Part shown: positions 3,044 to 52,565 of the stretch, one piece after another
Layout: the number at the start of each line of letters is the position of its first letter
Numbering within the stretch: the first letter of the stretch is position 1
NCBI GenBank assembly: GCA_038222225.1
Contig: JBBRHV010000004.1
Coordinates: 6,778 to 70,777 of the forward strand
Length of the DNA: 64,000 bases
Direction of reading: 5' to 3'
From: Candidatus Omnitrophota bacterium
Lineage (GTDB): Bacteria; Omnitrophota; Gorgyraeia; Zapsychrales; JANLHA01
Program-made: the position numbers and the translations under genes
Notes under the pieces: generated by a model
Databases searched by the model: none
The model's input: only the letters and a program-made list of their open reading frames with translations
What the model was told of the DNA's origin: nothing

Positions 3044-4204
3044 CTATTTTCCCATCCCAACACGCTGCCCAACCTGAAATGATTTTCCTTCCGTTTGAAT
3101 AGAAGGTGCAATAATAATCTCCACGTCATGCATCTCTTTGATCGTTTGAGCTCCCAGGGCCCCCATCGACGCCTTTAAAGCACCTACTAAATTTTGCGAC
3201 CCGTCATCGACTGTGGCCGGCCCTACTAAAATCTGTTCCAGTGTCCCTGTTGTTCCAACCCAAATCCGTGTACCCCGCGGCAAATGCGAATGCGGCATAG
3301 CCATACCCCAATGATAACCGCGGCCCGGAGCTTCTTCAGCTCTGGCAAAAGCAGAACCGACCATACAGGCATCGGCTCCGGCTGCGAAAGCCTTGCAGAT
3401 TTCTCCGCCGATCCTCATGCCACCGTCTGTAATGATCGAAACATATTTTCCAGTCTTCTTATAAAAATGATCACGTGCAGCAGCAGCATCCACCGTGGAG
3501 GTGATCTGCGGCACTCCAATCCCCAAAACTCCGCGCGTCGTACAAGCCGCTCCCGGCCCGACCCCGATCAAGACCGAACTGGCACCCAGCTCCATAAGTT
3601 CCATGGTCATTTTATAGGTAACCACGTTCCCGATCGCCACCGGAATCTTGAGCGAACGGCACAGCTCTCCATAATCACAAACCTTATATTCGGTTGAAAT
3701 ATGTTTTGCCGATGAGACCTGCGACTGAACAACCAAACAGGCCGCCCCCGCCTCTTGAGCCAAAGCTCCATAACGTTCTGCATTCTGAGGAACACACCCG
3801 ACAACAGCCGGCACGCCGGATTGCTTTATTTGATTGACCCGCTTCGATACAAGCGTTTCTTTGACAGGCAACTGATATAATTTTTGAAGCAATTCCGTTG
3901 CTTTTTCAGGGGACGAGTCAGCAATTTCACTGAGAACCTCGCTGGGATCATCATAGCGGGTCTGTACCCCATCCAAATTAAGAACGGCGATTCCTCCCAA
4001 TTTTCCCATAGCAATGGCGAAATTTACATCCACAACTCCATCCATGGAAGCAGCCACAATCGGAACATTCAGTTTCATTCCTGCAAATTCCCAAGATATA
4101 TTGATCTCGTTGGGATTTACAGTCTGCATGCCTGGAACAAGCGCCACTTCATCAAATCCGTAGCAGCGGCGTGCACGGCGGTCCATTCCGATCCATTCTG
4201 CCAT
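3044..4204 (-). CDS. IMP dehydrogenase / GMP reductase family protein lacking the CBS pair (GuaB3-like)
   Basis: Catalytic loop GVGPGAACTTRGVLGIGVPQITS. ATG at 4204 (MAEWIG) preceded by AGGAGG at 4213-4218, so I used it instead of the track start at 4255. About 387 aa, with no CBS insertion. Confidence 0.75.
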   Translation of the reverse strand: MAEWIGMDRRARRCYGFDEVALVPGMQTVNPNEINISWEFAGMKLNVPIVAASMDGVVDVNFAIAMGKLGGIAVLNLDGVQTRYDDPSEVLSEIADSSPEKATELLQKLYQLPVKETLVSKRVNQIKQSGVPAVVGCVPQNAERYGALAQEAGAACLVVQSQVSSAKHISTEYKVCDYGELCRSLKIPVAIGNVVTYKMTMELMELGASSVLIGVGPGAACTTRGVLGIGVPQITSTVDAAAARDHFYKKTGKYVSIITDGGMRIGGEICKAFAAGADACMVGSAFARAEEAPGRGYHWGMAMPHSHLPRGTRIWVGTTGTLEQILVGPATVDDGSQNLVGALKASMGALGAQTIKEMHDVEIIIAPSIQTEGKSFQVGQRVGMGK

Positions 4205-4421
4205 GTATGCTGTCCTCCTGTTATAAACCCGTGAAAAATAATAAGATTTATTCAAAAAATGATTGTTTTAGACTAAATTTTGAATTTTTCATGGAAATAT
4301 GCGTATTATATTAAAGACTTAATATATATAATTTAGGGGAAAATGTCAAATAAAATAAAAATCCCCAGAAAATCTATTATTCCCGGAGATTCTAATTTTG
4401 CTGATAAGAACTACCGAACTT

Positions 4422-5291
4422 TTATGTAGCTAAACTTATATCCTGCCGAAGCTTTCGTTTCAGATAATCCTCAAGATGTGTTTTACCTCGTTTGTTTGTT
4501 AAAAGATCATGGGTCGATGTGTACACGATTAATTCCCCCATCCCGTAATATTGCGCCGAAAATGGCTTAAGAACAGCGAGCGCCAAGCGGCAGGCCCACA
4601 TCGGAAATCCTGAAATCTGAACCGGTTTATTGTGAACCTTTAAACAAATCTGGCTGATCTCATTCCAGCTCAAATCCTGGGGACCACCAACATCAACATA
4701 CACATTGGACAATTTGAGACTATCTTCTGCCATGATTTCAGCCAAATCCTCTTCGCAGATCGGTGTGAAACGCGCCTTTCCATCACCAAACACCCACATC
4801 CTTCCTTTGGCTGCCATGGCGCCATAATTGGCAAGATCGCTAAAAAATCCGCCGGCCCGGAAGATGACCCATTCCAGTCCACTTTTGACGAGCTCCTGTT
4901 CAAATGAATATTTCGCTTCATAAAGCGGCACTGTTTTATATCCCTGATCCGTTCCGGCCGGAGAAATAAAAACAAATTTCTTAACACCGCTCTTCTTGGC
5001 TTCATTCAATAAATTGATATTCCCCTGATAATCCACTCCCATATGCGTGAGCTTACCCTTCATCCGGGTAATGCCAATAACCGAAACCACCACATCCACA
5101 CCATCACAGCTGCCGGCCAAACTTTCAGGCTTTGAGACATCAGCCGAGAGAGCCGCCGAAAGCTGATCCCGAATCGCGTCCATTTCCTCTTTCCGGAAAG
5201 AAATGCCGCTAACATTAGCCCCTCGCTTTTTAAAAGACGACACTAATAAACGTCCCAAATTCCCACCGGCACCGGCGATCAACACATTCAT
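4422..5291 (-). CDS. NAD(P)-binding Rossmann-fold oxidoreductase (NmrA/SDR-like)
   Basis: N-terminal MNVLIAGAGGNLG dinucleotide-binding motif. ATG at 5291 with AAGGAG 7 nt upstream; the track's upstream extension is the SD region itself. Confidence 0.6.
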   Translation of the reverse strand: MNVLIAGAGGNLGRLLVSSFKKRGANVSGISFRKEEMDAIRDQLSAALSADVSKPESLAGSCDGVDVVVSVIGITRMKGKLTHMGVDYQGNINLLNEAKKSGVKKFVFISPAGTDQGYKTVPLYEAKYSFEQELVKSGLEWVIFRAGGFFSDLANYGAMAAKGRMWVFGDGKARFTPICEEDLAEIMAEDSLKLSNVYVDVGGPQDLSWNEISQICLKVHNKPVQISGFPMWACRLALAVLKPFSAQYYGMGELIVYTSTHDLLTNKRGKTHLEDYLKRKLRQDISLAT

Positions 5292-5352
5292 TTTCAATCT
5301 CCTTTTTTCCACCTATGATGGTCATCCAACCCGCCGACCTTCAAGGCACGGC

Positions 5353-5976
5353 CTATTTGTCATACTCAATGACCCACTCAGTCGATGGCAAATTGACCTG
5401 AACTGTTTGGTGATCTTCTGATAGTGTCCCCCGCTCTTCGGCGACTTTGCCCAAACATGTAATACGGTACGCTTTAGCTTCATCAAGGCCGGTGTTTTTA
5501 AAAAAATCCTTGGTGTAAAGAAACATCGAAAGGATCCCCTCCAACTCGTCTCCATTCATCACCGGATACCGCAAGGAAATCAGCCGCGGCTGAATCAAAC
5601 TCCCGTGTGCCGGCTCACTGAGTTGCGGGCCGGGAGACTCTTTCATTTTTTCGATAAAGACGGTAAGCTCTTTGACTTTCTTCAAGTCATACCCACGAGC
5701 TATAGAATGAGATGGACGGTAGGTCTGACGAATCACCCAATTGAAATCCAGAAAACTCCCATCATAAAATCCCGGGATCTCTTGCGCCACAGGCCGCATC
5801 AGCTCCCGATACGTCTTAACATTCGGATGCTGATCTGCTACAATTTTCATTTTCGCGAACATTTCGGAAAAATACTGCTGCGTCTTTTCTCCCACCTCGT
5901 CGGCAGCAGAAACCGGAAGCGCCCCAAATACAACAAGAGACACGGCCAAACAAATCCCAATAATAATTCTTCTCAT
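5353..5976 (-). CDS. secreted hypothetical protein (signal peptide)
   Basis: MRRIIIGICLAVSLVVFGALPVSAADE signal peptide; AAGGAGG before the ATG at 5976. I do not recognise a family. Confidence 0.4.
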   Translation of the reverse strand: MRRIIIGICLAVSLVVFGALPVSAADEVGEKTQQYFSEMFAKMKIVADQHPNVKTYRELMRPVAQEIPGFYDGSFLDFNWVIRQTYRPSHSIARGYDLKKVKELTVFIEKMKESPGPQLSEPAHGSLIQPRLISLRYPVMNGDELEGILSMFLYTKDFFKNTGLDEAKAYRITCLGKVAEERGTLSEDHQTVQVNLPSTEWVIEYDK

Positions 5977-5994
5977 CTATTCCTCCTTGAACAT

Positions 5995-6663
5995 TTATTT
6001 CACAAGTTCATACACCCCGACATACCCCAAATGATGGGCGGTCTTCTCCCATCTCGAAAAAGGCGACTCTGCAATCGCTTGTTGAAGGCGCCCTTCAATA
6101 TTTTCTCGAATTTCATTCTGCTGAAACAGCCAATATCCGGACCATGCGCAGAAGGCTCCAAAGATATTAGTCGGTTGATCAACATCCACAATTACAAACT
6201 TTCCTTCAGGCTTAAGTGTGCGATAGACTTCAGCCAGCGTCTTGGTCTTTAATTCATAATCAATGTGGTGAAAAAAGAAGGTGGAAAGAACTGCGTCAAA
6301 CGAATTATCGGAATAGGGCAAGGCTTCGGCCGCTGCATGGTCAAACTGAATATTGGAAAGCCCACGGGCCTTTTGACGGGCAACATCCAGCATTTTTGAA
6401 GCGGCATCCAGCCCGTTCACAAAACTATTGGGATCATTGGAAAGTCGACGGGCAATGCGAATAGAAAGAGTCCCGGTTCCGCACCCCACATCCAGAACAT
6501 GCGCAGAAACCGGTAAGGCCATTTGGTCAATAATGCGGTTTGAAATACGGTCTTCCAGTCCAAAGGTCATCAGCGGAGCTAGAAAATCATAGACAGCAGC
6601 CGCGTGATCAAGGGTGCGTCCACGGGTTATGCTTCCTTCTGAAGAATGAACGGAATGAGCCAT
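5995..6663 (-). CDS. class I SAM-dependent methyltransferase (UbiE/COQ5-like)
   Basis: VLDVGCGTG motif I; acidic motif II FDAVLSTFFFHH; ATG at 6663. Confidence 0.7.
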   Translation of the reverse strand: MAHSVHSSEGSITRGRTLDHAAAVYDFLAPLMTFGLEDRISNRIIDQMALPVSAHVLDVGCGTGTLSIRIARRLSNDPNSFVNGLDAASKMLDVARQKARGLSNIQFDHAAAEALPYSDNSFDAVLSTFFFHHIDYELKTKTLAEVYRTLKPEGKFVIVDVDQPTNIFGAFCAWSGYWLFQQNEIRENIEGRLQQAIAESPFSRWEKTAHHLGYVGVYELVK

Positions 6664-7691
6664 TTATGAGGATCTCCCAATCCCAAAACAAAAAACATGG
6701 ATTCTGCGATATCTTCTCGCTCTTTTTCTGAAAGCGCCATTCCGCACTCCGCAAGCTGAGCTAATCCCCTCATCAGGAACACCTTTCCCAACCGGGCAGC
6801 CGGAACACAGAACTGGTCAAAAATTTCAAGGCACTCCTTAAATGAGTCAGGTTCGCCGGTTAAACCTTTCAAACGACTAGTATCGCTTTTCCGGCCTTGA
6901 TAGACCATTTGCGAAAGCACATAATTCTGCCGGCCTTCTTTAAGGTCAACGGACATGTCCCGGATATCATCCAAGACCTGACATCCTAGGCCAAAATTCA
7001 TCAAAGCAGCTTCCATCTTCTTGATCAGTGGCCAATCCAATCCTTCTTCAATACAATTAGGGCCCAAAAACGGTAGATTAAATAAAATGCCGGTCTTAAG
7101 AACATGCACCTTTTGAAGGATATCCTCCGGCGAATAACGTTTCTCGATTCCGCCTTCTTCCGAAGACTCTTCAGCCGCGCTCGGCAAAAGGACCTGCAGC
7201 GACTGACGGGACAGGATATCAACCTTCTCAAAAGACAACGTCTTTGAACGGATCGCCTCATCCAAAATCGCCTGCAGCACCCGATCCGCGGCCATAATCG
7301 CGATCACCTGTTTCATGATATGCCCCCGGCCCGTCATGCAGATCGGCAGGGTCAGTTTATCCTCATTGTCCAGAAGATTATCCGCACTGGTAACCCAGAT
7401 CCTGAACAGGTAGTTCAGCTTTCCGTAAAGGATCCTTTTCTCACGCGATAAGCCCAAAACAGAATACACGGATTGGAACAGGACAGAAAACAAATGACGC
7501 CGGACTGATTTGAATTCTTCGGGGAATTCGCCGATGGTCACCGAGAACTCCTGAGGGGTCTCTTCCGGAGAAATCGTAATTTCTCTGGCTTTATCCGTTA
7601 CAAATTCAAAGCACTTCCGACACTCCGCAAAGGCCTGACGAAATATAATCGGTCGCAACCAAACATCTTCGATATGTTTTTTAAAATCCAT
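6627..7691 (-). CDS. isoprenoid synthase-fold protein, squalene/phytoene-synthase-like (tentative)
   Basis: Two Asp-rich segments, SADNLLDNED and QVLDDIRDMSVDLKEGRQNY. The second resembles the DxxxD...GRxY segment of head-to-head trans-isoprenyl diphosphate synthases. Overlaps the downstream methyltransferase by 37 nt. Confidence 0.4.
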   Translation of the reverse strand: MDFKKHIEDVWLRPIIFRQAFAECRKCFEFVTDKAREITISPEETPQEFSVTIGEFPEEFKSVRRHLFSVLFQSVYSVLGLSREKRILYGKLNYLFRIWVTSADNLLDNEDKLTLPICMTGRGHIMKQVIAIMAADRVLQAILDEAIRSKTLSFEKVDILSRQSLQVLLPSAAEESSEEGGIEKRYSPEDILQKVHVLKTGILFNLPFLGPNCIEEGLDWPLIKKMEAALMNFGLGCQVLDDIRDMSVDLKEGRQNYVLSQMVYQGRKSDTSRLKGLTGEPDSFKECLEIFDQFCVPAARLGKVFLMRGLAQLAECGMALSEKEREDIAESMFFVLGLGDPHKWLIPFILQKEA

Positions 7692-7750
7692 CAGTATTCT
7701 TTTGTTTCCAAATAAATAATTGTTTATTATATCATATTAAAAATTTAGTG

Positions 7751-7788
7751 GAAAAAAGGCGGCAGAACATTTGCTCTGCCGCCTTTTT
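7751..7788 (-). terminator. rho-independent terminator after groEL (bidirectional in form)
   Basis: GGCGGCAGA(7758-7766)-loop-TCTGCCGCC(7775-7783), with an A6 run on the upstream side and a T5 run on the downstream side. On the minus strand the hairpin is followed by a U-run. Confidence 0.65.
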
Positions 7789-7813
7789 GATAAAACCCAA
7801 ACTCTTTCCAAAA

Positions 7814-9472
<1,659 letters not shown>

Positions 9473-41919: not shown

Positions 41920-42183
41920 TTATTTCTTCAGGATCCGGATGATCTCCTTGATCTGCGGATCAACCACCCGGTAACACGATCTAACCCCATCCTTGCGTAC
42001 CTCTATAATACCCCTGGACTTTAAAATTGCCAGATGCTGCGAAACCGTGGACTGCGGCAACCCCAGGGCATTCATAATCTTGGTTACATTGCATTCTCCG
42101 GCACTGAGTCCCTCCACCATTTGAAGGCGGACCGGGTGGGCGATCGCTTTGAGTTTTTCACTGATGATATTGTAATCGGTCAT
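41920..42183 (-). CDS. ArsR/SmtB family transcriptional regulator
   Basis: HPVRLQMVEGLSAGECNVTKIMNALGLPQSTVSQHLAILKSRGII winged HTH; ATG at 42183. Confidence 0.8.
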   Translation of the reverse strand: MTDYNIISEKLKAIAHPVRLQMVEGLSAGECNVTKIMNALGLPQSTVSQHLAILKSRGIIEVRKDGVRSCYRVVDPQIKEIIRILKK

Positions 42184-42289
42184 TTCTTTTATCCTTTTAT
42201 CCAAATATTACGATATAACGATTAATTTGTCAAGAAAAAAGACACGCGCCTAAAACTAACCAACTTTTAATTATGGCGTGTGCCGGGCT

Positions 42290-42840: not shown

Positions 42841-44337
42841 TTAGAGATAAAGGTCCCGCTCACCGGCTTCGATGCGGCGGTAGTAATTCATGAAGAGGTC
42901 AAAGGTTTGCGGATTGGTCTGGCGGATCTGAGCGATCTCGCGCTCAATGATCGGAATGCTAAGTTTGCGGGTTTCTTCCCCGGCAAAATCATCCACCCAT
43001 TCTTTAAAAGTGAGCACAGCGTTGAGCTTGCAGAACTTCCCTTCCTGACCATTACGCAGAAGTTCCATGATGCACTCCCCGGTCCGGCCGCAGCGGTACC
43101 CGGCCGTGCAAAAAGAAGTAATATAGCCCATACGGGCAAATTCAGCGATCACATCTTCCAAACTGCGGGTATCGCCTAGTAAAAACTGCTGAGTCTTCTC
43201 ATCTTGAAGGCTCGCCGTCTTTTGATATCCGCCGAGACCTATGTTAGAGGATGCGTCGGTTTGGGTGATCCCCATCTCGATCGCTTCCCTGCGCATCGCC
43301 GCGTTCTCGCGGGCGGTAATGATCATTCCGGCATGCGGGATCGCCAAACGCAAAACCAGGATCAATTTCTTAAAATCTTCATCCGAGACGCGGTGTTTGC
43401 TGAATTGATCCGCGTTCGTATTTAAAGCCGGCTCAAGCCTCGGAAACGAAACCGTATGCGGCCCGATCCCAAAACGACTCTCAAGTTCCAGCGAATGATA
43501 CACCAACCCCATGACATCAAACCGCCAATCCGCCAGCCCAAAGAGCGCGCCTATTCCCACATCATCAATGCCGGCCTCCAGTGCCCGATGCATGGCATAG
43601 AGCCGCCAACGGTAATGCCCTTTGATCGTATTCAATGGATGAACGTCGCGGTACGTCGGCAAGTGATAGGTTTCCTGAAACACCTGATACGTCCCGATCC
43701 CCGCGTCACGGATTTTCTTAAGATCAACGATGGAAAACGGTGGGGCATTGACATTCACCCGACGGATGTAGGACTCATGCCCGTTAACCTTCGGTTTGAC
43801 GTTATAGATCGTCTTAATGCTCGACACAATAAAATCCACATCATTACGCGGGTGCTCGCCATAGACAACGATCAGGCGCTTATGACCGATCTTGCCGGCT
43901 AAAGCCTCAACCTCTTTAACGATCTCCCAGGGAGCCAGCACTTTGCGTTCTGCGGTCTCGTTCTCGCTTTTAAACCCGCAGTAGCTGCAGTTGTTCACAC
44001 AGTAATTGCCTAAATACAACGGGGCAAAGGTGACGATGCGGTTGTCATAGACTTTGAGCTTAACTTTAAGCGCAGTCTGCTTCATTTCCTGCAGAAGCTG
44101 CGGGTCCTCGACATTGAGAAGGACCGCGGTCTCTGCCGGCGACAAATTCTGGATCGCCAGCGATTTCGCCAGAATGTCCCTTACCTGCTGCGGATCAGGA
44201 TCCTTGTGGCGCCCCAAAATCAGCGGAATCTCATCCTGCGGAATAAAATCCCTGCCGCCTACGAGATATTTGTCGATCTCATCCTGACAAATACGCTGCT
44301 CGAGCCACGTCGGTTGTTTTACTTCTGAAGTAAACAT
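42841..44337 (-). CDS. hydG: [FeFe]-hydrogenase H-cluster maturase, radical-SAM HydG (ThiH family with C-terminal extension)
   Basis: Radical-SAM CVNNCSYC, and a C-terminal Cys cluster FCTAGYRCGRTGEC...C that is absent from ThiH. Located in the hydrogenase operon. Confidence 0.8.
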   Translation of the reverse strand: MFTSEVKQPTWLEQRICQDEIDKYLVGGRDFIPQDEIPLILGRHKDPDPQQVRDILAKSLAIQNLSPAETAVLLNVEDPQLLQEMKQTALKVKLKVYDNRIVTFAPLYLGNYCVNNCSYCGFKSENETAERKVLAPWEIVKEVEALAGKIGHKRLIVVYGEHPRNDVDFIVSSIKTIYNVKPKVNGHESYIRRVNVNAPPFSIVDLKKIRDAGIGTYQVFQETYHLPTYRDVHPLNTIKGHYRWRLYAMHRALEAGIDDVGIGALFGLADWRFDVMGLVYHSLELESRFGIGPHTVSFPRLEPALNTNADQFSKHRVSDEDFKKLILVLRLAIPHAGMIITARENAAMRREAIEMGITQTDASSNIGLGGYQKTASLQDEKTQQFLLGDTRSLEDVIAEFARMGYITSFCTAGYRCGRTGECIMELLRNGQEGKFCKLNAVLTFKEWVDDFAGEETRKLSIPIIEREIAQIRQTNPQTFDLFMNYYRRIEAGERDLYL

Positions 44338-45590
44338 TCCACTCCTGTAGATGCGCTGGCCGTCTGATAAACTTTTAGCGCGTCGCTAAACGGCATCAAC
44401 ACCCGCTCCAGAACGCCCTGCGTATACGAAATACAAATTCCGTAATTAGTAATCCGGACCGAACTCTTGCGAGCCTCGGTAATGCGGCCCAGCATTTCTT
44501 TGCGGGTCAGCATACATCCCCCGCAATGAACAATCAATTGATACTGCGATAAATCTTTGGGGAAATCACGGCCGGTACAATATTCGATTCTCAAATCTTT
44601 TCCGGTGGAATTTTTCAGCCCGCGCGGAATTTTAACCCGGGCGATATCTTCGTCAATCGCATGATGCGTACAAGCTTCCGCGATCAGAACCCGGTCCCCG
44701 TCCTTCAAATCTTTGATCTTGGCAGCACCGCGAACCTGTTCCGTCAGGTCGCCTTTAAACCGAGACAACAGCGTCGAAAACGTGGTCACCTTAACATCTT
44801 GAGCGGTCTGACGGATCACCTCTCCCACCACCGGTGAATCGCAAATGACAAGATCCGGACTCTTCGACAAACGGGCCAGGGCTTGAACATACTCGGTCTC
44901 TTTAACGATCAAAGTCATCATGGAATGATCCAAGGCCTCACGGATCGCCTGAACCTGTAGCATTTTAATCCGGCCTTTGGGAGCTTCTAAATCGATCGGA
45001 GCCACCAAAAGCGCCAACCCTCCCTGAGGAATCAAATCTGCCATCAAATGAGGCGTGCGGTAATACTCATACGGAGACACTTTCAACATGCCGTGTTCCA
45101 ACCGAGTCACGCTGTCCTGACGGTTTGACCAGTCGGTGCTCGAACACAACAAAACATCATCGGCTTCCGCCTTCAGGCGGTTGATAAATCCTTCCGACGG
45201 TTTTTTCAGGTCAAGCTTATTGACCACAGCCACAACCGGAGTTTTAGTCTCCCGCGCTTGCGCGATGACATCTCTCTCATAATCCGTCCAGACATCGGCT
45301 TCCGTAACCAGCATGATCACATCCGAACGCGTCATCACGCGCCGCGTCCTTTCCCGTCGCATCTCGCCCAACGCGGTCTGGTCATCTAAACCCGCTGTAT
45401 CCAAAAACACAACCGGCCCCACCGAATGCAGCTCCATGGTCTTTTCAACCACGTCAGTCGTTGTCCCCGGGACATCCGATGTGATGGACACATCCTGCCC
45501 AGCGATCATATTCAGAAAACTGGACTTTCCCACATTAGTGCGACCGAATAGCCCGATCTGCAATCGTAACGCTTTTGGTGTTGTTAACAT
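44319..45590 (-). CDS. hydF: [FeFe]-hydrogenase maturation GTPase HydF
   Basis: G1 GRTNVGKSS, G3 DTAG, G4 NKLD; C-terminal Cys motifs (CTHH...HCGGC). Confidence 0.85.
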   Translation of the reverse strand: MLTTPKALRLQIGLFGRTNVGKSSFLNMIAGQDVSITSDVPGTTTDVVEKTMELHSVGPVVFLDTAGLDDQTALGEMRRERTRRVMTRSDVIMLVTEADVWTDYERDVIAQARETKTPVVAVVNKLDLKKPSEGFINRLKAEADDVLLCSSTDWSNRQDSVTRLEHGMLKVSPYEYYRTPHLMADLIPQGGLALLVAPIDLEAPKGRIKMLQVQAIREALDHSMMTLIVKETEYVQALARLSKSPDLVICDSPVVGEVIRQTAQDVKVTTFSTLLSRFKGDLTEQVRGAAKIKDLKDGDRVLIAEACTHHAIDEDIARVKIPRGLKNSTGKDLRIEYCTGRDFPKDLSQYQLIVHCGGCMLTRKEMLGRITEARKSSVRITNYGICISYTQGVLERVLMPFSDALKVYQTASASTGVECLLQK

Positions 45591-45608: not shown

Positions 45609-45998
45609 CTATGATTTTCGAATATAATTTTGAACTGTCTTTAAAAATAATTCCGGATTGATGGGCTTCTCCAAAAACGCTTTTGCCGGAACAAGGACTT
45701 CACCGGTCTGATAATCATAAGCAAATTCACCGACTTTTTTAATCCCCGAGACAATAATGACCGGAGTATGTCTGGTGGTTTCATTGGCATGAAGCGCCTT
45801 TGCGACATTAAACCCTTCCGAATCATCCGCCATCATGACATCCAGCGAAATCAGGTCCGGATTGATCTCTTTAGCCTTCTTCACGCCCTGCTGGCCGTTG
45901 TTGGCGGTCGCGACTGTATATCCGTTGGCCTCCAATAAGGCCTTAACGGCTTCAATAAAATCCTGGTCATCATCAATCATCAAAATTGTGTTTGCCAT
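45609..45998 (-). CDS. stand-alone response-regulator receiver (REC) protein
   Basis: MANTILMIDDDQDF..., phospho-acceptor Asp in LISLDVMM, T/S in VIIVSG, Lys in EKPI; no output domain. Confidence 0.85.
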   Translation of the reverse strand: MANTILMIDDDQDFIEAVKALLEANGYTVATANNGQQGVKKAKEINPDLISLDVMMADDSEGFNVAKALHANETTRHTPVIIVSGIKKVGEFAYDYQTGEVLVPAKAFLEKPINPELFLKTVQNYIRKS

Positions 45999-46012: not shown

Positions 46013-47758
46013 TTAACGTTTGTACTCCGGTCGTGGTTTGTACTTTGTATGCAGCAAATGATGCGCTTTTTCGCCTAGCGGAGCACCCAAAAACTCCTCA
46101 TAGAGTTTTTTTACAAACGGGTTTTCGTGACTGTAACGGACGGCACAAGATTCGTCATCATCATACAAACCCTGCGCGCGTGCCAAACGCACTTCATTGC
46201 TCACACCATACGGCTGCCCGCCGCCGCCAATGCATCCCCCCGGACAGGCCATGACTTCAATAAAATGATAGGGCAAAGGTTCATTGTTTTCCTTGGCCTG
46301 ACGAACTTTGCTAAGCACATATTCTACATTACTTAAACCGTGCGCAACAGCAATATTTACGGTTGAACCCTGAATGGTGACCGATGTTTCCTTCACTCCC
46401 TCCAGCCCCCTCACATCCATAAATTCAACGTCTTTCAGATTCTCTTTGGTAATAAAATTATAGGCCGTGCGCAACGCCGCTTCCATCACGCCGCCGGTCG
46501 CCCCGAAGATCGTCCCGGCGCCGGAATAATCACCCATAAGGTGATCCGAATCTTCATCAGGAAGATGTTCAAAATCGATTCCGGACTGTTTAATCATACG
46601 GATCAGTTCCCGGGTCGTTATAACGTAATCCGTATCCTGATAACCTGAGGAAAACATGTCCTGGCTGCGGTTGATCTCATACTTTTTTGCCGTACACGGC
46701 ATGATCGAAACCACCACCACCTTCGCCGGATCGATCTTATGAGTCTGAGGATAATACGTCTTAGCCAAAGCGCCCATGATCTCCTGCGGAGACTTCGCAG
46801 AAGAAAAATGCTCGATCATGTCGGTATGAAATTTCTCCATAAAATCCACCCAAGACGGGCAACAGGTTGTGATCAACGGCAACGGCCCCTTTTTATACAC
46901 AAACCGCTGAACAAATTCACTGGCCTCCTCCATGATCGTCACATCGGCGGAAAAATTGGTGTCAAAGACCGCTTTAAACCCGATCCGTCTTAACAGGGCA
47001 TACAGTTTGCGTGTCAGATTCGTTCCCGGCTTCATGCCGAACCCTTCTCCGACCGCTACGCGCACTGACGGCGCGATCTGCACAACACAATGCTTATCTG
47101 GATCCTGCAAAACGTCCCAGACGTTCTGCGTATCGTCCTGCTCAAAAATAGCCCCGGTCGGACAATGAGCAGCGCACTGCCCGCATCGCACACACGGAGA
47201 ATCACCAAGCTTAATATCACCGGCGGCCGAGATTCGAGTCTCCACGCCGCGCTCCAAAAATGAAAGAGCCCAGACATTCTGTGTTTCCTGACAAACCGTC
47301 ACACAACGGCCGCATTTGATGCACTTACTCGGCTCCAAAACAATCGTTCCCGTTGAACGATCGATAGGAAGATCCCTCACAACTTTTTTAAAACCTTCAT
47401 CCCGGATACCGAAATCAGAGACCATGCTCTGAAGTTCACAGTTATTGTTGCGGCCACACTTCAAACAATCATTAGGGTGATTGGACAGGATCAGCTCCAG
47501 GACCGTCCGCCGGGTCGCAACCAGTTCAGGGTCATGTGTGATAATGTCCATCCCCTCCCCAATCGGCGTGCAGCAGGAACGGATCATCTTACGCGTTCCC
47601 TTAACCTTGACGATGCAGACTCCGCAGGCGCCGCTCGCCACGACATCCGGGTGTTTACATAAAGTCGGAATATTAACCTGAACCTGCTTGGCCACATCCA
47701 GAATGGTCGCGCCTTCTTCAAACTCGACCGGGAGATCATTGATAATTGCTTTTCCCAT
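46013..47758 (-). CDS. hydA: [FeFe] hydrogenase catalytic subunit HydA (2Fe-2S and 4Fe-4S N-terminal domains plus H-cluster domain)
   Basis: H-cluster motifs TTCCPSW, MPCTAKKYE, EVMACPGGCIGGGGQP; N-terminal plant-type ferredoxin fold and multiple CxxCxxCxxxCP ferredoxin motifs. Confidence 0.95.
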   Translation of the reverse strand: MGKAIINDLPVEFEEGATILDVAKQVQVNIPTLCKHPDVVASGACGVCIVKVKGTRKMIRSCCTPIGEGMDIITHDPELVATRRTVLELILSNHPNDCLKCGRNNNCELQSMVSDFGIRDEGFKKVVRDLPIDRSTGTIVLEPSKCIKCGRCVTVCQETQNVWALSFLERGVETRISAAGDIKLGDSPCVRCGQCAAHCPTGAIFEQDDTQNVWDVLQDPDKHCVVQIAPSVRVAVGEGFGMKPGTNLTRKLYALLRRIGFKAVFDTNFSADVTIMEEASEFVQRFVYKKGPLPLITTCCPSWVDFMEKFHTDMIEHFSSAKSPQEIMGALAKTYYPQTHKIDPAKVVVVSIMPCTAKKYEINRSQDMFSSGYQDTDYVITTRELIRMIKQSGIDFEHLPDEDSDHLMGDYSGAGTIFGATGGVMEAALRTAYNFITKENLKDVEFMDVRGLEGVKETSVTIQGSTVNIAVAHGLSNVEYVLSKVRQAKENNEPLPYHFIEVMACPGGCIGGGGQPYGVSNEVRLARAQGLYDDDESCAVRYSHENPFVKKLYEEFLGAPLGEKAHHLLHTKYKPRPEYKR

Positions 47759-47780: not shown

Positions 47781-49583
47781 CTATCGTTGTATGGCTCCAA
47801 ATTTACAGACTTCAAAACACTGTCCGCAACGGATGCACTTCTCGGCCACGATCCAATACCCCTGTTCGCGGTCTCCGGGAATCGCTCCCACCGGGCAATT
47901 GCGCTGACACAACGTGCAGCGACGGCATTTTTCCTGAATAATGCTATAGTTAAACAACTGGCTGCATTTTCCCGCTGGACAATGCTTGTCATGAATATGC
48001 GCGCGATATTCTTCATCAAAATACTGCAGCGTTGAAAGAACAGGATTCGAAGCCGTCTGTCCAAGCCCGCACAACGAAGCCTTCTGCATCGCAGAAGAAA
48101 TCCTCCGCATTTTTAGAACATCTTCCTCCTGTGCCTTGCCTTCAGAAATGTCCTTTAAAATACTCAGCAGCTGCTTTCCGCCGATCCGGCACGGGGCACA
48201 TTTTCCGCAAGATTCCTCAACGCAAAATCCCAAATAAAATTTTGCGATATCGATCATGCAGTCGTCTTCATCCATGACGATCATCCCGCCCGACCCCATG
48301 ATAGAACCCAGCTTCTGAAGATTTTCATAATCCACCGGCGTGTCAAAAAACTGTTCCGGAATCACTCCCCCTGAAGGCCCTCCGGTTTGAATGGCTTTGA
48401 TTTTTTTCCCGTTCTCTGTTCCACCGCCGATATCAAAAACAATTTCCCGGAGTGTGATCCCCATGGGAACTTCCACCAAACCAGTATTTTTCACCTTTCC
48501 GGTTAAAGCAAAAACTTTGGTTCCCCTGGAATCTTTTGTTCCGATCTTTGAAAACCAATCGCCGCCTCTTTGAATAATCACTGGAATATTGGCTAAAGTT
48601 TCCACATTATTAATGATTGTCGGTTTTCCCCACAGGCCCTTGACCGATGGATACGGCGGGCGCGGTACCGGGCAACCGCGTTTCCCTTCAATAGAGGCAA
48701 TCAACGCCGTCTCTTCACCGCAGACAAAAGCTCCTGCTCCCAACCGAATTTCCAAATCAAAAGAAAATTTTGTCCCTAAAATATTTTTCCCCAGGACCCC
48801 ATACTCATGGGCCTGATCAATCGCCCTCTGAACACGCTCAATGGCCAGCGGATATTCAGCTCGAATATAAAAAAACCCCTTCGTCGCGCCGACCGTAAAT
48901 CCGGCAATGATCATTCCTTCTAAAACCGAATGCGGATCTCCTTCCAAGACGCTGCGATCCATATACGCGCCCGGATCCCCCTCGTCACCATTGCAAATGA
49001 TATATTTCTGATCTGCCTGAACACCACGAGCAAAATTCCATTTCATCCAGGTCGGAAACCCCCCGCCTCCGCGTCCGCGTAATCCACTCAGCCGCAGCTC
49101 TTCGATCACTTTTTCCGGGACTCCCCTGGTTAATGTTTTTTTCAATCCCTGATAACCGTCATTCGCCAGATAATCCTCGATATTCTCCGGATCGATCACG
49201 CCGCAATTACGCAAAACAATACGGATTTGCTTCTCAGAGGTAACAATACGATACTTTGAAATTTCAACAGCTTTCGGATTCCCCCGAACAAGATGATGCT
49301 GAATAATATCAACGGCCGCCTGCGCATCAACGTTCCCATACACGCCTTCAGAAACGCCATGCCGCTCGATCTCAACCAAAGGCTCCGCGTAACACATTCC
49401 AAGACAACCGCAGCGCATCAATTCCGCATCGATACCGTTGGCCTCAAGCTCAGAATAAATTTTCTTAAAAACATCCTTCGCCCCCGCGGCAATCCCGCAG
49501 GAACTCATACCGACCCGAATAATGGGGCGATCACTTTTCTTTCTCTTAAAACCATCCAATTGACCCATGGTCAACTTCGCCAT
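47781..49583 (-). CDS. hydB: NuoF-like NAD(P)H-binding flavoprotein subunit HydB
   Basis: 51-kDa-subunit motifs (GRGGGGFPT, ESCGKCAPCR); N-terminal thioredoxin-like 2Fe-2S domain and two C-terminal 4Fe-4S ferredoxin motifs. Confidence 0.95.
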   Translation of the reverse strand: MAKLTMGQLDGFKRKKSDRPIIRVGMSSCGIAAGAKDVFKKIYSELEANGIDAELMRCGCLGMCYAEPLVEIERHGVSEGVYGNVDAQAAVDIIQHHLVRGNPKAVEISKYRIVTSEKQIRIVLRNCGVIDPENIEDYLANDGYQGLKKTLTRGVPEKVIEELRLSGLRGRGGGGFPTWMKWNFARGVQADQKYIICNGDEGDPGAYMDRSVLEGDPHSVLEGMIIAGFTVGATKGFFYIRAEYPLAIERVQRAIDQAHEYGVLGKNILGTKFSFDLEIRLGAGAFVCGEETALIASIEGKRGCPVPRPPYPSVKGLWGKPTIINNVETLANIPVIIQRGGDWFSKIGTKDSRGTKVFALTGKVKNTGLVEVPMGITLREIVFDIGGGTENGKKIKAIQTGGPSGGVIPEQFFDTPVDYENLQKLGSIMGSGGMIVMDEDDCMIDIAKFYLGFCVEESCGKCAPCRIGGKQLLSILKDISEGKAQEEDVLKMRRISSAMQKASLCGLGQTASNPVLSTLQYFDEEYRAHIHDKHCPAGKCSQLFNYSIIQEKCRRCTLCQRNCPVGAIPGDREQGYWIVAEKCIRCGQCFEVCKFGAIQR

Positions 49584-49597
49584 CGACTCCCCCTTTA

Positions 49598-50473
49598 TTA
49601 AACCGCTGCAATTTTTTCTTTAGAATATTCAGATAAAATATTAATGATATTTTCTTTTTTAACTTTCCCGTAAATTTTTTCATCAATCATGATCACCGGT
49701 GCTAGACCGCAGCACCCCAGACAACGCACAACCTGAATATGAAATTCTCCATCGGAGGTTGTCTGCCCCTCTTCAATATTCAATAAAACCTTCAGTTCCG
49801 CCAAAATCCCCGGCGTCCCCTTCAAATAACAGGCCGTTCCCAAGCACACGGAAATCAGATGCTTTCCGGGCGGATCAAGTTTGAAATAATTATAAAATGT
49901 GATCACCTCATAAATACGGGCTAACGGAATCCCCAACAAACGCCGAAGCTCAAAAGAAACTTCACGGGGGACATAACCATAATGATTCTGGATTTCGTGA
50001 AGAATCATAATCAAATTGCCGTCTTTGCCGCTCCATTTCTCAACCAACGCATCAATTTCACCGACAAAACTACGATGCTCCGTCCCCGTCTTCTTCATAA
50101 AAATCTTAACTGTGCTTAATAAACGCTCGGGCTGAATCGGCTTCTCAATAACCATTTTGACCGGAAGTTCTTTCTCGTCGGGCTGGATGTCAAACGAAAA
50201 ACCCATTTCCCTTTTTGCACCAGTAATCAAGATCAACGGAATATTGCACGTCGCCGCATCCGCAGCCAACGCTTTGGCCATCTCCGCCCCTTCCGTCTTG
50301 TATGTCATCATCATATCCAGCAAGATCAAATCCGGCGACTGTTCCTTAGCCCGCTGAAAACCCTCCTGCCCATTGGAGGCGCGAATCACCTCATGTCCAT
50401 CGGACTCCAGAAGAAGCGCCGTCGCTTCCAAAAAATCCAGATCATCATCCACAATTAAAATCTTGTTCTGCAT
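49598..50473 (-). CDS. hydC: fusion of a REC receiver domain to the NuoE-like 2Fe-2S subunit HydC
   Basis: Residues 1-125: receiver (DDD, LILLDMMM, LILITG, EKPI), paralogous to the 45609-45998 product. Residues 140-291: NuoE/HydC fold with CLGTACYL...CLGCCGLAPV. Confidence 0.85.
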   Translation of the reverse strand: MQNKILIVDDDLDFLEATALLLESDGHEVIRASNGQEGFQRAKEQSPDLILLDMMMTYKTEGAEMAKALAADAATCNIPLILITGAKREMGFSFDIQPDEKELPVKMVIEKPIQPERLLSTVKIFMKKTGTEHRSFVGEIDALVEKWSGKDGNLIMILHEIQNHYGYVPREVSFELRRLLGIPLARIYEVITFYNYFKLDPPGKHLISVCLGTACYLKGTPGILAELKVLLNIEEGQTTSDGEFHIQVVRCLGCCGLAPVIMIDEKIYGKVKKENIINILSEYSKEKIAAV

Positions 50474-50487
50474 GTCCCCACCCTCTG

Positions 50488-52335
50488 TTAAATTGCCTTA
50501 GGTATCTGAAACTTAAACGAGTTCCCCTTTAAGGCAGGTTCCACCCAAATTTTTCCGCCATGACGCTCCACAATTTCCTTTGAAATAAACAACCCGATAC
50601 CGGTTCCCTTCACGCTCTCCTGACCGCGATAAAGGATCCGTGAAAATTTCTTGAACAGCTTATCCATATCCACACTGGCGATCGGTTCCCCGTCATTATA
50701 AACTTCCACTTCGAACATGTCCGCATGGTCTCTGGCCAGAATCCTGATCTTCCCGCCGATCAATCCATACTTTACCGCATTACTCAATAAATTATTTACA
50801 ACGATCTGCATCAATCCCGGATCAACAACCACATGAAGTTCAGCATCCACTTTATTTGAAATTGTCAGATTTTTTTCTTCCGCCTGCTGTTGAATGGATT
50901 CTATCGCGGGATCAAACAAATGCTCCTTCAACAAGATTTCCTGTTTATCAACTTTGAGCTCGTCCTTTTCAATCCGGCTCAAGCTCAAAAAATTCTTTAC
51001 AGTAACAGTCAAATAGTCCAGATTCCGGGCCATGGACTTCAGGACATTTTCCTGTTTCTCATTGATTTCACCCAAAATCCGCTTGCGCAACAGATAGGTA
51101 TTGAGAACAATCGACGACAAAATCCCTTTCAGCTCGTGAGACACAAAACCAATCAAATCCAGGTAGCGTTTGTTCATTACCGCCAAGCGCTTATGCGTTT
51201 CCTCCAGACTTTTTTCACGTTCCCCCAGCTTTTCCGACATATAATTGATCGAATCCCCCAACTCCTTCATTTCATAAACACTGGATCCCGTCGTGTCAAT
51301 CTTGCTATCCCATTTTCCATGAGCGATTTTGACCGTTGTGCGGACCATTTGAGTCAACGGACGGATCATCGAATTGGCCAAAAAATATGCAAAAATCACC
51401 GTTGGGATCGCACCCATGAGGATAATCATAAGGAGCCCCAAAAACAATCGATCTCCTATCCTCTGAAATGGCTTTTCTAAAATGCCCACATACAGACTTC
51501 CAATAATATCGCCTTGGATATTCCGGATCGGTTCATATGCCGTGATATACCAATCCGTAACCACAAAAGCCCGATCCAACCAGGTTCCTCCCTGCTCGAC
51601 AACTTTCTTATACACCTCTTCCGAAATCCGTGTTCCAATCGCCCGATTGCCGTTTTCATCCAGAACATTCGTCGCCACTCTCACGTCATCCTCAAAAATG
51701 GTCACCGTTCCATAAGGCTTCCCATCGTACATCTTCTGCTCAAAAACAACATTGACGATGTGATCAATAAAATCAAAATTATTATTAATAATCTGTCCTC
51801 CGTAAAGGACCTTTTCCACCCGCCCCTCAGAATTTAGAATAGGCCTGGCAAATTCCATGCTCAAGGCGTCCAAAACCTGGGTACGCTTTGCCAGCCCAGC
51901 TTTCGGAGTCGGACGGACGTCAATGACCATTCCCGGCTTGATCAGCTGAAGCTCCTCCTTCCCTATAATACGAGTAGCCACAACCGGCTCTCCAGTCTCA
52001 AAAGCCAGCTGAACAATATCACTGGCAACTGTTCTTTGATCAGCAACATTAACCACCCCAATATAATCCAGGCCCAACTCCTTTTGAACAGCTTTGAGAT
52101 TTCCATCCGGATCGACAATATTAAAAGCGATTCTCATTTGGTTCAACTTCTCATTATAAACGCTGCGGATCGTGTTTAAATTCTGCGTAACCGTCTGCTG
52201 AGCCTCTGCAAAAATGTACCGCTTAACCACAAAAAAACCATAACCGGACATAAATAGACCCCAAAACAGAACCATTGAAATGATTCCGATGAGGATTTTT
52301 GACCAAATTTTAGTTGGCTCAATTCGATTATTCAT
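50488..52335 (-). CDS. sensor histidine kinase with periplasmic double-Cache domain, HAMP, HisKA, HATPase
   Basis: Two TM helices bracketing a ~280-aa periplasmic domain; H-box SHELKGILSSIV; N, G1, G2 boxes (GTGIGLFISKEIVERHGGKIWVE). ATG at 52335 preferred over the track's GTG at 52395. Confidence 0.85.
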   Translation of the reverse strand: MNNRIEPTKIWSKILIGIISMVLFWGLFMSGYGFFVVKRYIFAEAQQTVTQNLNTIRSVYNEKLNQMRIAFNIVDPDGNLKAVQKELGLDYIGVVNVADQRTVASDIVQLAFETGEPVVATRIIGKEELQLIKPGMVIDVRPTPKAGLAKRTQVLDALSMEFARPILNSEGRVEKVLYGGQIINNNFDFIDHIVNVVFEQKMYDGKPYGTVTIFEDDVRVATNVLDENGNRAIGTRISEEVYKKVVEQGGTWLDRAFVVTDWYITAYEPIRNIQGDIIGSLYVGILEKPFQRIGDRLFLGLLMIILMGAIPTVIFAYFLANSMIRPLTQMVRTTVKIAHGKWDSKIDTTGSSVYEMKELGDSINYMSEKLGEREKSLEETHKRLAVMNKRYLDLIGFVSHELKGILSSIVLNTYLLRKRILGEINEKQENVLKSMARNLDYLTVTVKNFLSLSRIEKDELKVDKQEILLKEHLFDPAIESIQQQAEEKNLTISNKVDAELHVVVDPGLMQIVVNNLLSNAVKYGLIGGKIRILARDHADMFEVEVYNDGEPIASVDMDKLFKKFSRILYRGQESVKGTGIGLFISKEIVERHGGKIWVEPALKGNSFKFQIPKAI

Positions 52336-52565
52336 ATTTTTTTGATAAATTTTCACAAATTTACAATAGTTTTCATATATCGTGAAATATTTCACTTTTA
52401 AATAAATAAAAAAATAAAGAACCCTTGCTCTTTATGTCAACGCTTCCATCAATCGTACTATTCCGTTACGATTAAGTATATAATAAAAAAATTTAAATTC
52501 AACAAAAATTATTTTTCAAATAAGAACCTTTCCGCCATTCAATCCATTCTATCGCCATGCCCGCC

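Follow-up and report, generated by a model that had tools for sequence, protein, structure and literature searches.

The gene at 49598..50473 of the window, the 64,000-nt stretch of Candidatus Omnitrophota DNA analysed here, encodes one polypeptide in which a response-regulator receiver (REC) precedes the HydC subunit of a HydABC-type [FeFe] hydrogenase. We give a probability of roughly 60% that this hydrogenase is under direct control of the kinase encoded next to it, acting on Asp53 of the fusion protein (REC-HydC); the phosphotransfer and its catalytic effect are what we infer. The first-pass annotation had suggested a post-translational switch on the hydrogenase. Comparative genomics gives this idea good support, though not proof: a kinase is conserved beside the fusion, DNA-binding outputs are absent from the operon, REC and HydC occur in split and fused forms, and the phosphorylation site is lost where the kinase is missing. 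In REC-HydC a receiver module and a hydrogenase subunit, each known by itself, are joined in a new way, and this conserved architecture is apparently undescribed.

The fusion gene

An open reading frame at 49598-50473 had been reported in the first-pass annotation with its strand left unstated. Its coordinates were exact, and the strand is minus. On the plus strand the same interval translates into a sequence full of stops, and that reading was rejected. The gene and its parts are as follows.

49598..50473, minus strand: REC-HydC fusion gene, 291 codons, ATG start, no internal stop
50099..50473, minus strand: REC domain of the fusion, aa 1-125 (Pfam, CheY alignment, conservation, AlphaFold2)
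50054..50098, minus strand: variable linker, aa 126-140 (column entropy, AlphaFold2)
49598..50053, minus strand: HydC/NuoE-type thioredoxin-like [2Fe-2S] domain, aa 141-291 and stop codon (Pfam, PDB matches, Foldseek, cysteine invariance)

The sequence GAGGGTGGGG, which is strongly Shine-Dalgarno-like, is located 5-14 nt upstream of the start codon. Pfam annotated Response_reg (5-122) followed by 2Fe-2S_thioredx (141-283) in the 291-aa product, with no stop or frameshift between them. The motifs quoted earlier (IVDDDLDF, LILLDMMM, LILITG, EKPI, CLGTACYL and CLGCCGLAPV) are all present.

NCBI and Logan assemblies both contain a protein identical to REC-HydC. The hunt for homologous REC-NuoE fusions proposed in the first-pass annotation returned at least 120 clusters at 90% identity, a lower bound, from independent assemblies that were mostly of Omnitrophota. 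The 120 best homologue clusters (NCBI, JGI, ENA, Logan) showed 54-90% identity, and all of them carried both Pfam domains. The identical record and these two-domain clusters exclude a sequencing frameshift or misassembly, so the claim of an uninterrupted frame holds. Separate REC and HydC genes do exist in some relatives (L035), as an artefact of assembly or sequencing that joined a receiver gene to hydC would suppose. The probability of such an artefact is negligible, given the identical protein in independent sources, at least 120 homologue clusters with both domains in one frame, and an internal Met125 with no Shine-Dalgarno-like motif in front of it. An internal start at Met125 yielding free HydC was rejected because this motif is lacking. 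On the sequence record, the REC-HydC fusion is real and under selection, and is neither a frameshift nor a chimera. Members of the family carry no annotation beyond 'NAD(P)H-dependent oxidoreductase subunit E' and are easily overlooked.

Receiver and HydC domains

A profile search of the product, also proposed in the first-pass annotation, placed both halves well above the curated Pfam thresholds. The first ~125 residues are a receiver, as had been claimed: Response_reg matched with an E value of 2.7e-15 and 56.9 bits (cut-off 30.2) over profile positions 1-110 of 111. The active site comprises the acidic residues D9/D10/D11, the phospho-acceptor D53 (codon at 50315-50317), T84 and K111. In the alignment with E. 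coli CheY, D9/D10 correspond to D12/D13, D53 to D57, T84 to T87 and K111 to K109. The active-site residues are conserved in 92-100% of the 120 homologues. Three further residues, P47, D72 and P79, are invariant in this REC family and were not found in general receivers. The NCBIfam models showed a weak, sub-threshold likeness of REC-HydC to PleD, PhoB and DVU0259-type receivers. Membership of the DVU0259/DivK type was rejected, the two models scoring 55.6 and 72.8 against a cut-off of 160.

The remainder of the protein had been assigned to a NuoE/HydC [2Fe-2S] domain, and the assignment is sound. The 2Fe-2S_thioredx profile (PF01257) matched with an E value of 8.5e-46 and 155.8 bits (cut-off 24.8) over positions 2-144 of 145. 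The cluster ligands C210, C215, C251 and C255 (CX4C...CX3C) are invariant in the 120 homologues. Solved HydC aligned over its full length: residues 139-290 of REC-HydC matched residues 16-167 of the 170 residues of Thermoanaerobacter kivui HydC (8a6t_C) with an E value of 2.6e-42, and the chains 7q4v_C and 7p5h_C were also matched in sequence. The NCBIfam equivalog models gave 148.1 against 224 for HoxE, 135.5 against 141 for NuoE and 122 against 142.4 for nuoE_fam. Because these scores are below the cut-offs, the half is regarded as a HydC/BfuC-type homologue and not as NuoE or HoxE proper. REC-HydC is the sole NuoE-type gene of its operon.

Predicted structure

The AlphaFold2 model of REC-HydC, built on the 120-sequence alignment, had a mean pLDDT of 84 and a pTM of 0.60. 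Its receiver contains beta1-5 and alpha1, 2, 3 and 5, and alpha-4 is missing. Residues 85-106 (consensus ..KE..FPxELKP....LPVK) form an irregular, family-conserved segment in its place, with a pLDDT of 65-71. The full receiver signature of the first-pass annotation stands for the active-site set, whereas the modelled fold is atypical. A single unbroken helix (aa 115-146) runs from REC alpha-5 through the linker into the first HydC helix. The linker is the most variable part of the 120-sequence alignment, with a column entropy of 2.42 bits, against 1.45 for REC and 0.93 for HydC. The inter-domain geometry of the model is uncertain.

Foldseek matched the N-terminal half to response regulators and the C-terminal half to FdsG, HydC and NuoE chains, the latter with a probability of 1.00 and a target-normalised TM of ~0.55-0.60. 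The alignment of the HydC half with solved HydC showed 47% identity, and both share the helical-plus-thioredoxin fold. The search of the whole model against the PDB returned no chain spanning both halves. It gave single-domain matches only, with an rmsd of 9-10 A, and such matches carry no information on the position of the receiver within the complex. The high rmsd is probably due to a different packing of the helical and thioredoxin sub-domains in the isolated model.

The operon

REC-HydC is the second gene of a minus-strand operon with the order sCache/HAMP kinase, REC-HydC, HydB, HydA, REC2, HydF and HydG. The genes are separated by gaps of 14-22 nt, with one 19-nt overlap.

52396..52565, minus strand: gap upstream of the kinase, 170 nt (sigma-70-like consensus scan)
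50488..52395, minus strand: sensor histidine kinase (Pfam, hydropathy, His motif)
47781..49583, minus strand: HydB, NuoF-like flavoprotein (Pfam, NCBIfam, PDB matches)
46013..47758, minus strand: HydA, [FeFe]-hydrogenase catalytic subunit (NCBIfam, PDB matches)
45609..45998, minus strand: REC2, stand-alone receiver, 129 aa (Pfam, tblastn, NJ tree, alignment)
44319..45590, minus strand: HydF, [FeFe]-hydrogenase maturation GTPase (Pfam HydF_dimer, HydF_tetramer, MMR_HSR1)
42841..44337, minus strand: HydG-like radical SAM maturase (Pfam Radical_SAM and BATS)

The adjacent kinase mentioned in the first-pass annotation does exist, and its gene ends 14 nt before REC-HydC. Two transmembrane segments (aa 29-57 and 312-344) enclose an extracytoplasmic sCache_3_3 domain, which is followed by HAMP, HisKA and HATPase_c. 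The HisKA domain carries His420 in the motif HELK. The 170-nt gap upstream of the kinase is likely to hold the operon promoter, although the evidence is weak: TTGACA-18-TATTTT, a sigma-70-like sequence, lies at 52440-52411, and the counts of the consensus scan were modestly above those of shuffled sequences.

HydB consists of an N-terminal thioredoxin-like 2Fe-2S region, an FMN/NADH core and a C-terminal 2x[4Fe-4S] ferredoxin domain. Its full-length match to Acetobacterium woodii HydB (7q4v_B) had an E value of 6e-215, and there were further matches to other Bfu B subunits. HydA was annotated by NCBIfam as 'NADH-dependent [FeFe] hydrogenase, group A6' (FeFe_hydrog_A6), with 794 bits against a cut-off of 765. 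It matched 7q4v_A over its full length (E 1e-172) and also 8a6t_A of T. kivui. The 19-nt overlap is between the end of hydF and the hydG-like gene. The gene set is thus, by homology, that of a three-subunit HydABC/Bfu-type [FeFe] hydrogenase, with HydA, HydB and HydC present and the maturases downstream.

A second, stand-alone receiver in the operon, REC2, was absent from the first-pass annotation. It has equivalents of D53, S84 and K111, is ~46% identical to the fused REC and belongs to the same hydrogenase-associated REC family. REC2 occupies the same operon position in 11 related loci. The window contained no further NuoE-type gene, DNA-binding response regulator or nuoA-N operon, and also none of three features known from relatives, namely HydE, Rex and a second hydrogenase cluster. 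The genes flanking the operon have envelope, lipid and housekeeping functions.

Gene order in relatives

The scan of species-representative genomes gave 80 loci, onto which the window proteins were mapped. The named relatives are MAGs of Candidatus Omnitrophota and Auribacterota/Aureabacteria, and some are labelled Planctomycetia/Planctomycetales. The nearest genome match of the window is L001, an Omnitrophota MAG with 87% identity. The order kinase > REC-HydC > HydB > HydA was found in 24 loci (23 and the window) of Omnitrophota and Auribacterota, often with REC2, HydF and HydG downstream. The closest HydC orthologues that lack REC (63-72% identity) come from Fibrobacterota, Chitinispirillaceae, Elusimicrobia and TA06. 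They take the first position of hydC-hydB-hydA operons, and no kinase is present there; the kinase and the receiver were therefore gained or lost together.

The receiver is not fused to HydC in every relative. REC (127 aa) and HydC (173 aa) are separate genes with an ATGA overlap in L035, and L045, L047 and L048 have the order kinase > HydB > HydA > HydC > stand-alone REC. L006 and six other loci have a second cluster, REC > NuoE > short HydB > HydA, just upstream of the kinase, and reading of the ORFs placed a Rex-like gene in front of this cluster in L006. In the NJ tree the fused RECs formed one clade, sister to the stand-alone RECs of hydrogenase operons. This pattern of fused and split genes is classical (Rosetta-stone) evidence and argues for a physical partnership of receiver and HydC.

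The receiver might serve to localise the enzyme and not to control its catalysis: by docking on the membrane-bound kinase, it would bring the soluble hydrogenase to the membrane, for instance close to ion-pumping partners. The kinase is membrane-embedded according to its hydropathy, and receiver-DHp binding is a defined protein-protein interface. However, a 229-aa kinase with HisKA and HATPase only, and no membrane part, adjoins the same fusion in L018, L022 and L023, and kinase-receiver complexes are usually transient. We consider recruitment to the membrane very improbable.

The phospho-acceptor site and the kinase

The presence of the kinase was compared with the state of the receiver active site. 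D9, D53, T84 and K111 were kept in all 24 kinase-adjacent loci (24/24). The site was degenerate in 8/9 loci without an adjacent kinase, L016 being the exception with an intact site. The degenerate cases are L024 (VND, T84S), L025 (DNN, T84I) and six homologues with D53N, D53E or D53H, for which the absence of a kinase was read from the retrieved contigs. The association of adjacent kinase and intact site had a p value of 6.5e-7 by Fisher's exact test, uncorrected for shared ancestry; we estimate that the site degenerated in only ~4-6 independent losses. Since the site is kept with the kinase and decays without it, the comparison argues that phosphorylation of D53 by the adjacent kinase is under selection where the kinase is present.

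Among the 120 homologues, 10 (~8%) have N, H or E at position 53 and still keep the receiver domain. The domain outlasts the decay of its site, which argues that the receiver also has a role independent of phosphorylation. These homologues could point to a receiver that serves mainly structure or assembly, a pseudo-receiver for the docking of HydC or the oligomerisation of the complex, with phosphorylation irrelevant or secondary. The absence of alpha-4 from the model and the invariant P47, D72 and P79 would fit such a role, as would the Complex I receiver MSMEG_2064, for which a similar role has been suggested and in which Asp63 is occluded and no kinase is known (PMC10068793). The window protein, however, has all catalytic residues and a kinase gene 14 nt away, and the active site decays specifically where the kinase is absent, which implies selection for phosphorylation elsewhere. 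A mainly structural receiver is therefore an unlikely explanation, and control through Asp53 is preferred.

A second REC-NuoE family

In a search of 1.84 billion cluster representatives, the main REC-HydC family formed one 50% cluster. Further REC-NuoE fusions were found at 34-37% identity, and their receiver is canonical and scores high. This second family comprises ~30 clusters at 90% identity. In L092, REC-NuoE lies behind the same kinase architecture in a NuoF/HydA-like hydrogenase cluster. In L091 and L093 it belongs to clusters of NuoF and a molybdopterin oxidoreductase, which are formate-dehydrogenase-like (NAD-linked or bifurcating). L091 carries REC-NuoE beside a REC-GCV_H protein, and L093 carries a REC-NuoE-REC-NuoE tandem of 578 aa. 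The receiver of this family is ~65-70% identical to multi-REC proteins of Bacteroidota/Ignavibacteriota and much nearer to them than to the window receiver. The REC-NuoE combination therefore probably arose at least twice, independently, as judged by receiver similarity. One JGI product name reads 'NADH:ubiquinone oxidoreductase subunit E/CheY-like chemotaxis protein', so both domains have already been recognised by annotation pipelines.

An NtrC-type regulator and a REC-REC protein are encoded between the kinase and REC-NuoE in L092, and the kinase therefore also has a transcriptional branch in the second family at least. Sink receivers are a known two-component design, and the window operon has two receivers for one kinase. 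The receivers could be phosphate sinks or feedback inputs of a pathway with its real output elsewhere, either through REC2 and a different target or through a DNA-binding regulator encoded away from the operon. The hydrogenase would then do no more than modulate signalling, for instance as a reporter of its redox or assembly state. This arrangement would need neither a covalent fusion nor the strict adjacency to HydC that is seen across several gene arrangements, and no DNA-binding regulator was found in the window operon and 23 related loci. We rate it as improbable, and direct control of the hydrogenase remains our preferred reading.

A broader claim can be put forward tentatively, at somewhat less than even odds. 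The REC-HydC/BfuC fusions and their split versions may be a general, undescribed class of phospho-switches with at least two origins, in which membrane Cache kinases would have direct control over the electron flow or oligomeric state of flavin/Fe-S bifurcating enzymes of the Bfu type, [FeFe] hydrogenases and formate dehydrogenases alike. If true, two-component phosphorylation would for the first time be seen to act on the electron-transfer chain of a bifurcating enzyme.

Proposed mechanism

We propose that the 291-aa product serves as HydC in an [FeFe] hydrogenase of the HydABC type (Bfu family, NADH/ferredoxin-linked) and has gained a receiver at its N-terminus. The membrane kinase would sense an extracytoplasmic ligand through sCache and autophosphorylate on His420. 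The phosphoryl group would pass to Asp53 of REC-HydC, and probably also to REC2. Because the operon encodes no DNA-binding output, the output would be the enzyme itself. Phosphorylation may alter the beta4-beta5-alpha5 face of the receiver, which bears the family-specific segment instead of alpha-4. Since alpha-5 runs on as a single helix into the first HydC helix in the model, the change would be relayed through the alpha-5/linker helix to the [2Fe-2S] subunit next to the HydB flavin. In the solved HydABC structures the [2Fe-2S] cluster of HydC adjoins this flavin. Possible actions are a re-orientation of HydC on HydB or a receiver-mediated association of HydABC protomers. The effect would be to tune the activity or direction of the hydrogenase (H2 production or consumption) faster than transcription could.

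Comparison with known systems

REC-HydC shares the CX4C...CX3C ligands, the fold and the hydC-hydB-hydA gene order with solved HydC (T. kivui 8a6t, A. woodii 7q4v/8a5e, T. maritima 7p5h) and BfuC. The HydC, NuoE, HoxE and FdsG chains that were matched have 150-250 aa, and none of them matched in the receiver region.

Response regulators with enzymatic outputs are well known, such as the CheB methylesterase, PleD/WspR (GGDEF) and RpfG (HD-GYP), as is the adaptor RssB. Like these, REC-HydC has an N-terminal receiver, an alpha-5/linker, a non-DNA-binding effector and a post-translational output. Unlike them, its effector is an Fe-S electron-transfer subunit that works only inside a complex, and a normal alpha-4 is missing from the model.

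The closest precedent, by functional analogy only, is MSMEG_2064/Rv3143. This orphan single-domain response regulator was shown by cryo-EM to be a subunit of mycobacterial Complex I and was proposed to modulate the complex through protein-protein contact (PMC10068793; PMC9274095). It binds NuoB, NuoA, NuoC and NuoI at the junction of arm and membrane (PMC10068793). The authors termed this receiver subunit unique to mycobacteria (PMC10068793; PMC9274095). Like REC-HydC, MSMEG_2064/Rv3143 is a CheY-like receiver without an output domain in an oxidoreductase complex that contains NuoE/F/G. It is, however, a separate polypeptide that is not on NuoE and is encoded 5' of nuoA, whereas the receiver of REC-HydC is fused to a NuoE homologue of a soluble hydrogenase and has an adjoining kinase.

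Signal-transduction genes adjoin other bifurcating or uptake hydrogenases (PMC8542988; PMC9324843; PMC11406978). The known systems include the sensory hydrogenases HydS (groups C1-C3), kinase/phosphatase genes in hydrogenase clusters, and HoxJ/HoxA and HupT/HupR of [NiFe] hydrogenases. In HydS/group C, HoxJ/HoxA and HupT/HupR, the PAS/kinase domains are on a hydrogenase-like sensor or belong with DNA-binding regulators, and their action is thought to be transcriptional. In contrast, the receiver of REC-HydC is on a subunit of the catalytic complex, and sensing falls to an extracytoplasmic Cache domain instead of an H2 sensor. The MAG species of L006 and L015 are, we assume, covered by two papers on Ace Lake. 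Kinases are mentioned in these papers only beside group C hydrogenases (PMC8542988; PMC9324843).

Full-text literature searches returned no description of a REC-NuoE/HydC fusion and no report of phosphorylation control of HydABC. To our knowledge, no such control of HydABC has been reported.

Significance

The known or proposed controls of bifurcating hydrogenases are transcriptional (Rex, HydS-type sensors). How, and how fast, anaerobes switch these enzymes between making and consuming H2 is poorly understood. A receiver carried on HydC, together with its own sensor kinase, would offer a concrete and testable route from an external signal to a central redox-balancing enzyme. The system is compact (a kinase, two receivers and three enzyme subunits) and suited to reconstitution and cryo-EM. 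The two-component field would gain a further class of output, with an iron-sulfur subunit of a multi-protein oxidoreductase as its effector. The receiver of mycobacterial Complex I would also cease to be a single structural curiosity and become one instance of a theme that recurs among NuoE/NuoF-based enzymes.

Gene content of the window

The window 1-64000 showed a very strong strand bias throughout, with nearly all ORFs of at least 150 aa on the minus strand. These ORFs included housekeeping genes for GMP synthase, IMPDH, GroEL, UvrB, 3-dehydroquinate synthase, biotin carboxylase, phosphofructokinase and RpoA. For three sizeable window ORFs, no Pfam family scored above the thresholds applied.

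6627-7691, minus strand: ORF without Pfam match, 354 aa
37257-38555, minus strand: ORF without Pfam match, 432 aa
54212-54928, minus strand: ORF without Pfam match, 238 aa

The hyd operon and its downstream flank contained the following features.

47781-49583, minus strand: HydB, one protein of 600 aa
45609-45998, minus strand: REC2, a second, unfused receiver of 129 aa, between hydA and hydF
42841-45590, minus strand: hydF and a hydG-like gene, overlapping by 19 nt
41920-42204, minus strand: small ArsR-family HTH regulator (94 aa), downstream of the operon, past a diacylglycerol kinase gene

HydB is split in most relatives (L003-L005, L007, L009, L012, L014, L015 and others) into an N-terminal, HydD-like 2Fe-2S protein of 100-139 aa, mostly about 116 aa, and a HydB of about 580 aa, whereas it is a single protein in the window. 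Trimeric and tetrameric layouts therefore alternate inside one family. The maturation gene hydE was not found across the whole 64-kb window, unlike in the related locus L006, where it immediately follows hydG.

Receivers and kinases

REC2 shares about 46% identity with the receiver fused to HydC, and its Asp/Ser/Lys site is intact. A stand-alone receiver occupies the equivalent position in 11 related loci. One kinase thus probably serves two receivers.

The kinase adjoining the REC-HydC fusion is only about 229 aa (HisKA and HATPase) in three relatives (L018, 7287-7979; L022, 7290-7979; L023, 469-1158). There it amounts to a soluble kinase core, with neither a transmembrane nor a Cache part. 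Locus L081, which carries the fusion variant P0112 (D53N, at the phospho-acceptor Asp), encodes a hybrid kinase, dCache_1-PAS-HisKA-HATPase-REC (3348-6167), three genes upstream of that fusion, an architecture unlike that of the sCache kinase in the window.

In two loci of the second REC-NuoE family, the fusion lies within formate-dehydrogenase-like clusters of NuoF and molybdopterin oxidoreductase. L093 encodes a tandem REC-NuoE-REC-NuoE protein of 578 aa (6001-7737), and L091 a REC-GCV_H protein adjoining a REC-NuoE (6201-7927), with additional DRTGG, HATPase_c and PHP genes.

A second hydrogenase cluster in relatives

Seven Omnitrophota relatives (L006, L008, L010, L013, L018, L022, L026) carry a divergent second cluster immediately upstream of the kinase, and the sequence of an eighth locus, L011, begins within it (HydB2, HydA2). 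The gene order is REC (~123 aa), separate NuoE (~158 aa), short HydB (~400 aa, lacking the Fe-S domains at both termini) and long HydA (~640-650 aa). In L006 (1147-6119), a Rex-like gene precedes the cluster and a small ORF of 112 aa follows it. The window lacks this REC, NuoE, short HydB and HydA cluster. The second cluster may represent a non-bifurcating hydrogenase, likewise with a receiver partner.
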